DNA of 64,000 nt, taken from positions 12,424-76,423 of the IMG/VR virus record IMGVR_UViG_3300026549_000069; one strand, given 5' to 3'. The position numbers and the translations under genes are program-made. The notes under the pieces were generated by a model. The model was not told where the DNA came from. It saw only the letters and a list, made by a program, of their open reading frames with translations, and ran no database searches. Below are positions 12,412 through 26,591 of this stretch, in pieces; the first letter of the stretch is position 1; each line of letters starts with the position of its first letter. The DNA is from a virus (taxonomy: Duplodnaviria; Caudoviricetes).

Positions 12412-12480
12412 TAATATTACTTTTGCATACACGTTCACTCTTAACAGAAAGGGGGTAAGATTTTTTTCATGACACATTAG

Positions 12481-23161: not shown

Positions 23162-23524
23162 TTATTTAATCCCCTTGAATATCCAATCATTTGTTGTCGT
23201 TCCGTCGGAGTATATAACCTTAAACGTATCTTCTGTATCAACGTCTATTTTCTTTTGCCCATCATTGTTTATAAAGCAGCAACTAAAAGCGGGTGCGTTC
23301 TTGCCTTTTGCAAAAGCGCAAAGACGCTTTACGCTTACCTCAACACCGTTTTGTGAATAGTAATAAGTTAGAGGTATCACGCTGTCCCATGAACCACCCT
23401 CGCTATGGCTGTTCAGCACACCGTAAGGCAAATCACAAATGACACAATCAATCGAATTATCTGGAATGTCTTGCATCAATTCAAGGCAATCGCCCAAATA
23501 GATATTATTTGTTTCCATAATCAT
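23162..23524 (-). pseudogene. Truncated N6/N4 DNA methyltransferase N-terminus fused to unrelated sequence
   Basis: IYLGDCLELM...CDLPYG...WDSVIPL then divergence; no SAM-binding motif I. Confidence 0.65.
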
Positions 23525-23843: not shown

Positions 23844-24395
23844 TTAGAATAGAGTTAATTCTTGATTCTCGTTTTCTGTTTCAATGAACATTTTGCGGAA
23901 TATGTGGTAAAGCACATCGACAACAATGCTATTGCCAGCTAATTTGTATTGTGCGCTATTGCTTATTCCTGTTGCTTGTATGGTGTCAATGTCTTTGTCA
24001 TCAACACCCATAAGGCGAAAACATTCGCGCGGAGTTAGTCTTCTAATCTTAAATTTTTTACCTTCCAATTCTTTTGGTAATTTTCCTTTCATATCAACAT
24101 TGTTATATGGTTTTTCGTATATTCCAATCACATAAGGTTCTCTATCACTATAATAGTTGCAACACAGTGTCGGTGCAATATCTAAAATACGCTTGTTGGG
24201 ATTCTTGTATGGCCCCGTATTCGCAATTATTGCTTTGTATACTGTTTGACATTCTATTATTGTCGGGACAAGGTTCCCGCCAGCACTATAATCAGTAATA
24301 CATGGGGAAATGCCTTGTTTGTCATAGACTACGCCTTTACTGGGTCGCATTCTGTTTGGCTTTATGTAATATCCCAAAATTTTAATCTTTCCCAT
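23844..24395 (-). CDS. C5 cytosine methyltransferase C-terminal segment (TRD repeats + motifs IX/X)
   Basis: IRRLTPRECFRLMG...QYKLAGNSIVV. Confidence 0.85.
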   Translation of the reverse strand: MGKIKILGYYIKPNRMRPSKGVVYDKQGISPCITDYSAGGNLVPTIIECQTVYKAIIANTGPYKNPNKRILDIAPTLCCNYYSDREPYVIGIYEKPYNNVDMKGKLPKELEGKKFKIRRLTPRECFRLMGVDDKDIDTIQATGISNSAQYKLAGNSIVVDVLYHIFRKMFIETENENQELTLF

Positions 24396-24735
24396 ATTGG
24401 ATTATATTTATTTTCCCATCGGCTATTATTGTAGGAGCTATGTTTTTTGGGTCGTATATCGATTCCCCATTTGCACCTCGCTTATCCTTTGCTTGCGCCT
24501 GAAAAGCACGAATATCACCGTTAGGCATCATCTTATACTCAATCGTTCGTTTTGATTCGAAAATCGGTTCTACAATCACAACAAAATTTGGAATAGACCT
24601 GATTGTTGGGAATGTATTGTTGCTATGCGTTTCAAGTGTAAATTCATAGTTGTAGGTACTTCCACATCGAATTGACGCAGAAAACAACTTTGTGACATCC
24701 ACATTGTTAGCGATTTTCAATCTTGGTTTCTTCAT
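24382..24735 (-). CDS. C5-MTase TRD-like module ORF (two repeats)
   Basis: FPTIRSIPNFVVIVE and IAPTIIADGKINIIQY repeats. Confidence 0.6.
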   Translation of the reverse strand: MKKPRLKIANNVDVTKLFSASIRCGSTYNYEFTLETHSNNTFPTIRSIPNFVVIVEPIFESKRTIEYKMMPNGDIRAFQAQAKDKRGANGESIYDPKNIAPTIIADGKINIIQYGKD

Positions 24736-24822
24736 ATACTTCAATGATTAGAAAATCTTTTAATTGAATTGGCAATATCGTTCCAGATTTCCCTACTTAA
24801 TCCGTATGTTTCTTATCTTCAT
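24707..24822 (-). pseudogene. Frameshifted TRD-like mini-module
   Basis: MKIRNIRIK stops at TAG; adding one A gives ...KVGKSGTILPIQLKDFLIIEVYE. Confidence 0.5.
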
Positions 24823-25009
24823 ATATTTCTAAAATTCCCATTTCACGAAATCCTTGACGTGGATGTGTAATATTTCCTGCGTAATGGTGCGCACCGGTTA
24901 TCGTACATGCTATCCCATTCGGCGCATTAAGCGCATATCTACCATCGCCCAACGGGTAAAATTTAGCAATTGGTGTTTGGCTGGTGATTGTCCTCTTTTT
25001 CATATTCAT
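24797..25009 (-). CDS. C5-MTase TRD-like module ORF
   Basis: IACTIT...GILEIYE repeat. Confidence 0.6.
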   Translation of the reverse strand: MNMKKRTITSQTPIAKFYPLGDGRYALNAPNGIACTITGAHHYAGNITHPRQGFREMGILEIYEDKKHTD

Positions 25010-25142
25010 ATATTTCTATGATTTTCCATCCGTTCCGCGATGCGAGATTGCCGAATTGTGGGGTTATTGTGCCAATTATTTGTTGATTTTGTGGGAAACG
25101 ACTGTTAAAATCATCATAAATCAACACTGCTTTGCTCGTCAT
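24963..25142 (-). CDS. C5-MTase TRD-like module ORF
   Basis: IIGTIT...WKIIEIYE repeat; ATG 25142 with A-rich context. Confidence 0.6.
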   Translation of the reverse strand: MTSKAVLIYDDFNSRFPQNQQIIGTITPQFGNLASRNGWKIIEIYEYEKEDNHQPNTNC

Positions 25143-25866
25143 TTCTTGTTGAGAAAAACTTTTCAACTCTAGATTCGCTTAAATAAAACTTTTTATCAAC
25201 ATTAGAATCAAGATAATCCCTTAAACGCTTTTTTAGTTCAAAGCGTTTCGGAAAATAATATCTTGGCGGATTGCTTTCATCATCAATACGAATAGACACA
25301 AGGAATATACGATTGCGATTTTGTGCAACACCATAATCTACAGCATTTAACAATTGCGGAAAATTCATATATCCCAATCTTGCCAATTCGCTTTGCCAAA
25401 GGTTGAACATATCAATGAATTTCGATTGAACCATTGCCTCCACGTTTTCCAAACAAAGGTATTTCGGCTTTTTTGCAATCACGGCATTGCGAACATACCA
25501 AATGATACTTGAACGTGTACCACTGCCCTCTGCGAAACCATGCTGTAAACCTGCCGCTGAAATCGACTGACATGGTGTGCTGTAAAACAACAAGTCGCAA
25601 TCTGGAAAATTATCCCAATCAATCTTTGTTATATCGCCATAATTCTTATCAGCCCAATGCGGGAACAATGCTTTATGGGCAATCACCGCTGGCTGCTTGT
25701 CAATTGGTGATTTACTTTCTGGGTCAAACTCTGCCCAAGCGACAAGTTCGTAATCAAAATCAGGGAAATCACGTTTTAGCCTTTCCAATGCAAGACATTG
25801 GCTATCGTAGCCGCTGCATAACGTGGCTACCTTTAGTGGATTTTGCTTTGTGTATACCATAATCAA
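25114..25866 (-). CDS. C5 cytosine methyltransferase catalytic segment (motifs I-VIII)
   Basis: TLCSG, DITKI, STPCQ, ENV, QNRNRIF. Confidence 0.9.
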   Translation of the reverse strand: MIMVYTKQNPLKVATLCSGYDSQCLALERLKRDFPDFDYELVAWAEFDPESKSPIDKQPAVIAHKALFPHWADKNYGDITKIDWDNFPDCDLLFYSTPCQSISAAGLQHGFAEGSGTRSSIIWYVRNAVIAKKPKYLCLENVEAMVQSKFIDMFNLWQSELARLGYMNFPQLLNAVDYGVAQNRNRIFLVSIRIDDESNPPRYYFPKRFELKKRLRDYLDSNVDKKFYLSESRVEKFFSTRNDEQSSVDL

Positions 25867-26591
25867 AACAATGTTGGTGTAGTGTTAGGCTGTGTAATTC
25901 CTAATATAAAGTCACAGATAAAGTTCCTTGCATAGTCTGGAGAAATCATGCTACGTTCCTCGCTACATAATCCTGCATGGTCAGCACTTTTAGACTCCCA
26001 TACACGAAGTTCCTTTTTGGGCTTTTGAAACGAGCATCCAGATGTTGGTTCGCAATTAAAGAACCAATAACCAGTCGGCTTTGTGAAATAGTCGCCGCGC
26101 ATTCTTCTATTTCTGTCAATCACTGATGGCTCTTTCAAAAAATTATTGTGTAGATAATGCAACGTGGAATATGGATTCTCAATGACAATTCGAAAATTTC
26201 GTAGCAAGCAAATCCCAACCATTTTGTATAGCAACTTGTAAAATTCATTCCTATTGTCAGACCGTTCCAGCATAGCATCGAATTTTTGCTTTGTTGTCAT
26301 TGCTTTATAATTTATATTTTCAAGTGTGAAATAGCAAGGATTCACTAACCCAGTAAAATAAATACAAGGGAAAAAAGCCATTATAAAATCATCGCTAGTC
26401 ATTTTGTCAAAAATGCTTTCTTTACCATCATAGGCTTTGTTGATTTCGCCAAACAAGTCAATAACATGGTCGGTCTGCCCAAAATTATTTTGGATGTCGT
26501 AATCGAGAGCATCGTAGCCTAGCTTTTTAAATTCGTGCTTGAATGTGCCACTTTGCTCAAACAAACAATGTATTTTTCCTTTTATTTCCAT
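25863..26591 (-). CDS. Divergent C5-MTase-like protein
   Basis: LFEQSG (motif I-like), FFPC (motif IV), VIENP (motif VI), KPTGYW. Confidence 0.6.
   Translation of the reverse strand: MEIKGKIHCLFEQSGTFKHEFKKLGYDALDYDIQNNFGQTDHVIDLFGEINKAYDGKESIFDKMTSDDFIMAFFPCIYFTGLVNPCYFTLENINYKAMTTKQKFDAMLERSDNRNEFYKLLYKMVGICLLRNFRIVIENPYSTLHYLHNNFLKEPSVIDRNRRMRGDYFTKPTGYWFFNCEPTSGCSFQKPKKELRVWESKSADHAGLCSEERSMISPDYARNFICDFILGITQPNTTPTLF

Follow-up and report, generated by a model that had tools for sequence, protein, structure and literature searches.

Within a 64,000-nucleotide stretch of a virus of the Caudoviricetes (IMG/VR record IMGVR_UViG_3300026549_000069, positions 12,424 to 76,423; the whole stretch is called the window below) lies a gene for a C5 cytosine methyltransferase that is cut into five open reading frames (ORFs): the first carries catalytic motifs I-VIII (the N-half), the last carries motifs IX-X (the C-half), and the three between them, here called mini-ORFs, carry only target recognition domains (TRDs). 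According to the textbooks a C5-methyltransferase is one chain, with its TRD inserted between motifs VIII and IX; if the TRDs are free proteins in the present case, this would show that an enzyme can obtain its target recognition wholly in trans. The pieces are under purifying selection, each in its own frame, the start codons at their boundaries are conserved, and the same layout recurs in dozens of related phages. The interpretation that we favour, and that we regard as fairly probable, is that the locus encodes a multi-chain, multispecific phage C5 cytosine methyltransferase, whose parts are translated from separate genes and whose TRDs act in trans.

Organisation of the locus

All six groups of C5-methyltransferase motifs are present when the N-half and the C-half (Table 1) are taken together. 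In the N-half, motif I reads LCSGYDS, motif IV TPCQS (including the catalytic Cys), motif VI ENV and motif VIII QNRNR, and these positions are invariant in the alignment of homologues; in the C-half, motif IX reads RRLTPRECFRLMG and motif X AGNSIVV, both of them conserved in the alignment of the IX-X region. The Pfam family PF00145 matches the first part (25866-25114) over profile positions 2-216, corresponding to motifs I-VIII, with an E value of 1.4e-41, and the last part (24395-23844) over profile positions 256-322, corresponding to motifs IX-X, with an E value of 1.4e-11 (residues 98-169 of the C-half). The solved structures closest to the N-half are those of M.MpeI type (4dkj/8c56) and M.HhaI. 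Judged by its sequence, then, the locus belongs to the C5 cytosine methyltransferase family, and methyl transfer is the predicted activity. The start of the N-half is likelier to be the ATG given in Table 1, which lies two bases past the stop of the upstream gene, than the TTG at 25866 that appears in the list of ORFs. Because the N-half ends 64 residues after the QxRxR of motif VIII, it has no TRD.

Table 1. Parts of the methyltransferase locus in the window.
Part	Coordinates	Strand	Length	Start	Content	Family
N-half	25114..25860	(-)	248 aa	ATG 25860	motifs I-VIII	PF00145, phrog_116
ORF2	24963..25142	(-)	59 aa	ATG 25142	one TRD	
ORF3	24797..25009	(-)	70 aa	ATG 25009	one TRD	
Decayed module	24707..24822	(-)		ATG 24822	9-codon ORF and 29-codon TRD remnant	
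ORF4	24382..24735	(-)	117 aa	ATG 24735	two TRDs fused in frame	
C-half (ORF5)	23844..24395	(-)	183 aa	ATG 24395	two TRDs, then motifs IX-X	PF00145, phrog_116

The original prediction, made from the letters of the sequence, had described the two catalytic parts as separated by small ORFs that each contain one or two copies of a TRD-type repeat, and had likened the array to the tandem TRDs of multispecific enzymes. This description agrees with what is found, in that six intact modules and one remnant, all homologous to the TRDs of continuous multi-TRD relatives, lie between the catalytic halves. The TRD of ORF2 is of the type 'IYDD...IGTIT.QFGN..RNGWKIIE' and that of ORF3 of the type 'ACT[IL]TGAHHYAGNITHPRQGFREMG[IV]LE', while the first of the two TRDs with which the C-half begins is 82% identical to that of the C-half in a related phage (L012). 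The mini-ORFs belong to no Pfam or PHROG family, have no solved relative detectable by sequence, and gave no usable match in the ESM Atlas. Within the array no terminator is present on the coding strand.

Selection and start codons

In a comparison of fifteen homologous pairs, synonymous sites are saturated (proportion of synonymous differences, pS, 0.73-1.0) while amino-acid identity stays at 49-83%, and the modules are therefore maintained as proteins, in their own frames, by purifying selection. The ratio of nonsynonymous to synonymous differences (pN/pS) is 0.19-0.41 for the mini-ORF modules, 0.26 for the N-half and 0.15 for the IX-X core; modules of the ORF2 type lie at 0.20-0.39, again with saturated synonymous sites, and ORF4 at 0.38. 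For ORF3 the comparison with L071:6275-6469 gives 75% identity and a ratio of the corresponding rates (dN/dS) of about 0.06. The tails that follow the ..Y-E.. at the end of each module vary in length and sequence, and any apparent conservation in them is due to the head of the next module, the part with homology to continuous relatives.

Start codons were examined in a homology-filtered census of 13 related arrays. Bearing in mind that the events counted are not independent, as modules and junctions are inherited and duplicated, an ATG is found at the head of the downstream module at 85 of the 93 boundaries (91%) that do not lie at homopolymers. The ATG lies no more than 6 codons from the preceding stop in 63% of the segments supported by homology, as against 27% of spurious segments in alternative frames. 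Lysine occupies codon 2 in 44% of the module starts but in only 19% of the long genes of the window, and the Met-Lys-Lys heads have no counterpart in the continuous relatives. Of the 85 module starts 57 have a T at position -1, as do 28 of the 37 long genes of the window. As to frame, 53 of 71 adjacent boundaries are +1, 15 are +2, and the remaining 3 have a stop followed by an ATG in the same frame; the classical ATGA overlap occurs at six boundaries of the census, and in the L076 lineage the modules end in ..E-I-W.. with the ATG in the +2 frame (GAGATATGGAA). What is constant is thus the placing of a start codon within the end of the preceding module; the type of shift varies.

Among the genes of the window, Shine-Dalgarno sequences are not enriched (6%, against a background of 10%); taking the 63 ORFs of at least 120 amino acids, 60% of starts have A at -3 and at -13/-14, and 68% have T at -1. 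Initiation in A/U-rich, unstructured leaders without a Shine-Dalgarno sequence is typical of Bacteroidota. Starts of this A/U-rich, unstructured kind appear to be the norm in this phage, and from the initiation context its host is probably a member of the Bacteroidota.

Junctions in the window

Through the chain the frame steps by +1 each time, the coordinates modulo 3 being 0, 2, 1, 0 and 2 for the N-half, ORF2, ORF3, ORF4 and the C-half. At the N-half/ORF2 junction the sequence is gaaATGacg, with the ATG (25142) in the +1 frame and 29 nucleotides (nt) before the stop of the N-half; at the ORF2/ORF3 junction it is gaaatatATGaat, again +1, with an overlap of 47 nt with the tail of ORF2; and at the ORF4/C-half junction it is caatATGgga, also +1, with an overlap of 14 nt. 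The ATG at 24822 stands in a canonical motif, gaaatatATGaag, yet it opens an ORF of only 9 codons. In the frame of ORF3, behind its TAA, a stretch of 29 codons (24796-24710) that has no ATG aligns weakly (E 0.01-0.05) with the C-terminal part of modules of the type 'CAMRGRS...ITSV.KD..I.EIYE', which are intact in two relatives (L071 and L036); the remnant and the opening at 24822 can on this basis be taken together as one decayed module. The original prediction had counted five +1 junctions, and all five of its ATGs do exist in the +1 frame, but with the opening at 24822 discounted in this way four working junctions would be left. It had also pointed to a TAT-G at four of the five, correctly so for 25009, 24822 and 24735 (tatATG in each) and for 24395 (aatATGgg); 25142 is the odd one out.

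ORF4 deserves separate mention. Its junction, gaagtatATGaag, is +1 relative to the remnant, and in its frame three stop codons lie between the stop of ORF3 and its own ATG; because these close the frame, ORF4 should be reachable only by initiation of its own.

Two ways in which the code itself might be read differently were considered and rejected. If TATG were decoded as four bases, the conserved D-Y-G-V of motif VIII, where a TAT-G occurs in frame, would be lost; that the window has no tRNA but a normal tRNA-Gln also counts against such decoding. Reassignment of a stop codon fails in that the pieces lie in different frames, and TAA or TGA ends the pieces of the window.

Relatives with the same layout

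A scan of IMG/VR with a profile made from the N-half alignment yielded 70 loci. Chains of 5 to about 15 mini-ORFs between an N-half and a C-half are present in at least 12 different contigs (L010, L011, L012, L013, L015, L016, L019, L038, L039, L071, L073 and L076), and nearly all of these mini-ORFs begin with ..(Y/F/N)-M-K-K.. and end with ..h-h-E-(I/V/Y)-Y-E... In a rough tally of 72 loci, the 3.2 kb after the N-half contain 1.83 overlap junctions per kb, and other regions 0.58 per kb. The same module types recur in changed order from phage to phage, among them 'GLGRSRD..NPY.NCIHT', 'CAMRGRS..TSV.KD', 'GRERTEEEK..GDKGAKFS' and 'NADGN.AKTILAGCYKFG' as well as those of ORF2 and ORF3. Conservation of the junctions in relatives was one of the checks that had been proposed with the original prediction, and its outcome is that the breaks are not private to the window, while continuous forms exist too: proteins of 660 (P0006), 486 (P0043) and 521 (P0078) amino acids carry several TRDs in one chain and share 55-68% identity in the N-half. 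The split form is thus one conserved state of a family that also holds classical members. Cultured phages include no close relative, the best matches being uncultured faecal contigs at about 50% identity.

The relatives also bear on how the TRDs are attached. The ORF2 type is a free TRD in L073, is joined with motifs IX-X in the C-half of L013, and is internal to the continuous P0006; an exhaustive search for the ORF3 type gave 39 clusters, of which about 28 are stand-alone proteins of 47-114 amino acids, with fused forms in P0143, P0147, P0151, P0152, P0154 and P0156; and the second TRD of ORF4 is a stand-alone mini-ORF in L071 (6456-6647). In some loci (L018:4222-6100, L034:3661-6420 and L051:3979-6150) the core is circularly permuted, with motifs IX-X preceding I-VIII in one ORF, and is followed by chains of TRD mini-ORFs. 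Such permuted cores retain only the link from motif VIII to the TRD, whereas the C-half of the window retains only that from the TRD to motif IX. Because the same TRD type can be free, fused to IX-X only, placed after VIII only (in the permuted cores) or enclosed in a continuous enzyme, each of the covalent links is dispensable on its own.

A methyltransferase without a TRD cannot recognise DNA. In six relatives (L032, L036, L038, L040, L044 and L076) the N-half ends about 61 residues past QxRxR and the C-half starts no more than 22 residues before motif IX, so that the core has no TRD at all and every TRD is a mini-ORF. Because neither half has a TRD there, while all the parts are conserved, the TRDs of these six must act off the core, either in trans or by way of recoding.

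Several separate observations on these relatives may be recorded here. The circularly permuted core occurs in many of them, including the proteins P0011 and P0020. A protein of 102 amino acids from another phage (P0125) has an ORF2-type and an ORF3-type TRD in one ORF, in the order seen in the window; its join runs through what is in the window an out-of-frame tail and merges near a Gly-Gly motif, and a change in the length of a G tract may convert free modules to fused ones. In one ORF (L019:6980-7414) a 'GIGRNRD..NPY..CIHT' head is joined to a '..TSVAKD..IEP' tail, apparently through recombination between the two module types.

The proposed enzyme and the alternatives

On the interpretation preferred here, one transcript would carry the five overlapping genes, namely the TRD-less N-half, three TRD-only genes (59, 70 and 117 amino acids) and the C-half. 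Each would be translated from its own ATG, set within the last codons of the preceding module (..E-I/V-Y-E.. being read in the +1 frame as ..Y-M-K-K..), and the upstream ribosome, stopping 14-47 nt further on, would couple the translation of one gene to that of the next while giving separate polypeptides. The N-half and the C-half would then assemble non-covalently, in the fashion of M.AquI, and the free TRD proteins would dock in turn at the TRD position of this core, giving one catalytic core several target sequences; with several targets methylated, the phage genome might be protected from several restriction systems of the host. The more specific claim, that this is a holoenzyme with exchangeable free specificity subunits, in which the split core accepts any one of the 45-70 amino-acid TRD proteins made from the coupled mini-genes, seems to us about evenly poised between being right and being wrong. 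Combinatorial specificity arising from such cassettes, at any rate, is plausible.

To our knowledge, no structure has yet explained how multispecific enzymes bring many TRDs to a single active site, and a trans-acting TRD subunit is potentially a new principle. If the holoenzyme exists as described, it would be the cytosine-methylase counterpart of the HsdS principle, and phages could gain, lose, shuffle and (in the relatives, by means of poly-G tracts) individually switch protective specificities with the catalytic chain uninterrupted. It would also explain the very large anti-restriction repertoires of some phages, with up to about 20 modules in the relatives, and offer, ready to hand, a toolkit of small DNA-recognition modules that could be exchanged to programme cytosine methylation. 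A practical consequence concerns annotation: gene callers give loci of this kind as two methylase fragments accompanied by hypothetical mini-proteins, or as pseudogenes, and a correction would be in order.

A number of points weigh against this interpretation and should be set out plainly. That the mini-proteins are produced, and that they bind to the core, is something we infer from the sequence. Structure prediction for ORF3 by itself reaches a mean pLDDT (predicted local distance difference test) of only 56.5, and it may be that a TRD of 59-70 amino acids is unstable when alone. The C-half has two TRDs in cis, so a working enzyme in the window does not strictly need the free ones. ORF2 was missed by the gene caller applied to a second assembly of the same sequence (see below), and its ATG has a weaker context, with G at -3. 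Overlapping open frames are present at 76 of 87 adjacent boundaries in the relatives, with which the fusion of neighbouring modules, pair by pair, through recoding stays compatible. Finally, a limited search of the literature found no description of a C5-methyltransferase with a free TRD subunit.

The two TRDs in cis suggest a simpler enzyme for the window, consisting of the N-half and the C-half after the manner of M.AquI, with ORF2-ORF4 as spare cassettes, translated or silent, which would form a reservoir for recombination or be on their way to loss and would have no role as free subunits. The low confidence with which ORF3 is folded alone agrees with this, as do the one module already decayed and the changing module order between phages, which reflects frequent turnover of cassettes. 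This explanation is nevertheless rather unlikely, as the free modules are no less conserved in protein sequence than the catalytic parts, with synonymous sites saturated, many lineages have retained the ORFs and ATGs intact, the homologues of ORF3 in the databases are mostly stand-alone mini-proteins, and the six relatives without a cis TRD on either half must make use of free ones. Programmed recoding would account for the overlapping frames differently, by a +1 shift (or a -2 shift on A-UAU-AUG) at each junction that yields longer multi-TRD chains, up to a single-chain enzyme, the ATGs being incidental or the source of a second product. The original prediction had offered coupled and frameshift-joined cassettes side by side; the coupled half of it fits the data and the other finds no support, recoding being in our estimation improbable. 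A shift at the junctions themselves leaves the 91% conservation of the ATG and the Lys-rich heads unexplained, and it would not suffice between ORF3 and ORF4, where read-through of a TAA is needed as well, nor at the 11 of 87 adjacent boundaries in relatives that no single shift can bridge. Programmed +1 shifts take place at a shift-prone P-site codon beside a stop or hungry codon, often aided by an SD-like element upstream or a structure downstream. No known +1 signal is found at the zero-frame stops: inspection of the four overlaps in the window revealed no site of the CUU-UGA-C type and no P-site codon capable of re-pairing, those before the stops (UUA, UGC, CGC and GAU) being unable to re-pair in +1. 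It is true that four of the five junction ATGs lie where the upstream and downstream frames share 14-47 nt and that the shift is always +1 (the fifth ATG opening only its stub), as it is at most adjacent boundaries in the relatives, and that three of the window junctions (25009, 24822 and 24735) share aTATATGaa, on which tRNA-Tyr could re-pair two bases back; TATAT is missing, though, at 25142 and 24395, that is, at two of the four working junctions. Stretches of 100 nt at these four fold no better than shuffled sequences (z -0.69 to +0.84), and the minimum-energy folds leave the junction ATGs unpaired. The ATG in the +2 frame in the L076 lineage, and boundaries elsewhere of the ATGA or same-frame stop-start kind, also speak against a shift, and while the continuous relatives show that covalent TRD arrays work, 10-20 junctions in an array would leave a vanishing yield of full-length product.

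Two further explanations would make the breaks accidental. The first is that a once-continuous multispecific methyltransferase has been inactivated by frameshifts, any regularity being left over from the repeated sequence, and it can appeal to the continuous relatives at 55-68% identity in the N-half and to the one module of the window that is truly broken; we consider it highly improbable, given the purifying selection on every piece in its own frame, the intact catalytic motifs, and the recurrence of the same architecture, with start codons at the boundaries, in dozens of divergent contigs. The original prediction was to this extent borne out in holding that the regularity exceeds what random decay would leave. 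The second is that errors of sequencing or assembly have put indels into a continuous gene, for which it can be said that the record is a metagenome assembly and that many frame changes in the relatives coincide with error-prone G7-G10 tracts. The array of the window, on the other hand, is free of G or C runs of 6 or more, none of its junctions lies at a homopolymer, and unrelated samples show the same junction motif, ATG included. Three contigs in public assemblies encode exactly the same N-half protein. One of them, a MEGAHIT contig of 76,011 bp in the ENA, agrees with the window at every one of the 8,747 bases compared, though the reads behind it may be the same, and its gene caller reports genes of 248, 70, 117 and 183 amino acids. 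A scan of viral contigs with the N-half as a single protein gave no match, and a scan of metagenomes found no relative closer than 73%, so that comparison of the junctions at close range is confined to the identical ENA contig. The chance that the frames are an artefact may, all told, be regarded as negligible.

Comparison with known systems

The Bacillus phage enzymes M.SPRI, M.Phi3TI, M.Rho11sI and M.H2I have one core and, between motifs VIII and IX, tandem, short, exchangeable TRDs, each with a central T-[LIV]; they contain 3-5 TRDs, all of them in one polypeptide. They resemble the present locus in being phage-borne orphan C5-methyltransferases with tandem TRDs, and the continuous relatives P0006, P0043 and P0078 have exactly that build; identity to the window N-half is about 36-40%. 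The window differs in that its array consists of overlapping genes with starts of their own and its catalytic core is divided between two chains, while its relatives reach about 15-20 modules. Unlike the SPR and phi3T enzymes, the array of the window is not a single polypeptide: it comprises five ORFs in successive frames, with stops in the target frame between ORF3 and ORF4.

In Type I systems HsdS provides a separate, exchangeable specificity component for a common catalytic subunit, and phasevarions show phase variation at simple repeats. The likeness lies in the exchangeable specificity component (as proposed for the window) and in the variation of G7-G10 lengths in its relatives; the differences are that those systems make N6-methyladenine (m6A), consist of HsdM and HsdS and are encoded by the host, and that the window has no repeat tract.

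Closer precedents for the split core exist among C5-methyltransferases. The small subunit of M.EcoHK31I carries motif IX and is encoded in another frame wholly inside the gene of the large subunit. The likeness to the window is that parts of one enzyme lie in overlapping frames and are separate proteins that assemble, as would be the case in the window; the overlaps in the window differ in being short and head-to-tail (14-47 nt), and the additional subunits there are TRDs. M.EcoHK31I (YGGCCR) is a heterodimeric C5-methyltransferase, and M.AquI (CYCGRG) is a natural two-subunit enzyme, one chain having motifs I-VIII and the other IX-X together with the recognition sequence, both being needed for activity (PMC3404938). 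The N-half and C-half of the window, and those of its relatives, match this division, and M.AquI too has adjacent genes; it has two chains and one specificity, whereas the window counts five genes, including three that encode TRDs only, and a total of six TRDs. When M.BspRI, M.BsuRI, M.HhaI and M.SssI are cut between motif VIII and the TRD, the separate N- and C-terminal fragments reassemble in vivo into active enzymes (PMC3404938), and because these fragments complement each other the C5 fold must tolerate such breaks. These were laboratory constructs in two pieces with low activity (about 4% for M.SssI), and none among them had a TRD cut off on both sides (PMC3404938).

Homopolymer tracts in the relatives

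The TRD arrays of many relatives are dense in tracts of G7-G10 or C7-C9, located at Gly-Gly-Gly motifs inside modules. Over all loci, tracts of at least 7 occur at 0.98 per kb in the arrays and 0.18 per kb in the flanks; in L073 there are 14 in the 4.8 kb of the array and none in 4.6 kb of flanks, and in L019 8 compared with 1. In 26 cases a module is split over two frames at a tract, in mixed directions. Two loci from different metagenomes, L083 and L084, are 96.5% identical over 2.4 kb, and four of the five internal indels between them are changes in poly-G length. All this fits an on/off switching of individual modules by slipped-strand mispairing, with homopolymer errors as the alternative. 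If modules do switch, the layout in mini-genes would acquire a rationale, as a frameshift in one module would spare the other modules and the catalytic chain. In a limited search of the literature no description was found of free TRD genes, or of TRDs gated by poly-G, in phage C5-methyltransferases. The lineage of the window (40% G+C) has the same Gly motifs in mixed codons and no tract; nor does its array contain any simple-repeat tract of the kind used in phase variation, and it would on this evidence be constitutive. Examples of tract-rich arrays are L073:5052-8016 and L019:5238-7617, together with those of L010, L013, L038 and L076.

Insertions and neighbouring genes

In about half of the longer relatives an intein with Hint and LAGLIDADG domains is inserted at catalytic motif IV, right after ..STPC (for example L071:3211-5058, L073:3202-5052 and L076:4465-6285, and the proteins P0001-P0005, P0010 and P0018). 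Another insertion is suggested at L011:6897-8285 (the same contig as L009:3542-4906), where the C-half is followed by an ORF of 454 amino acids whose end repeats the last 18 residues of the methylase (..FRKMFIETENESQQLSLF); it looks like an inserted mobile gene that has duplicated the 3' end of its target.

In the window itself, a search of the phage collection at the DNA level matched only the gene directly upstream of the N-half (25863-26591, minus strand). This encodes a putative DNA methyltransferase (phrog_757, E 6e-23, without a match in Pfam) and is about 75% identical in DNA to a gene of Bacteroides fragilis phages of the B40-8 group. Because this neighbour, too, is a putative DNA methyltransferase, the locus appears to be a methylase cluster. 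Two genes downstream of the array, an ORF of 120 amino acids (23162-23524, minus strand) matches the N-terminus of an amino-methyltransferase over its first 50 residues (phrog_67, ..DLPYG..) and then diverges, and is apparently a truncated or remodelled second methylase gene.

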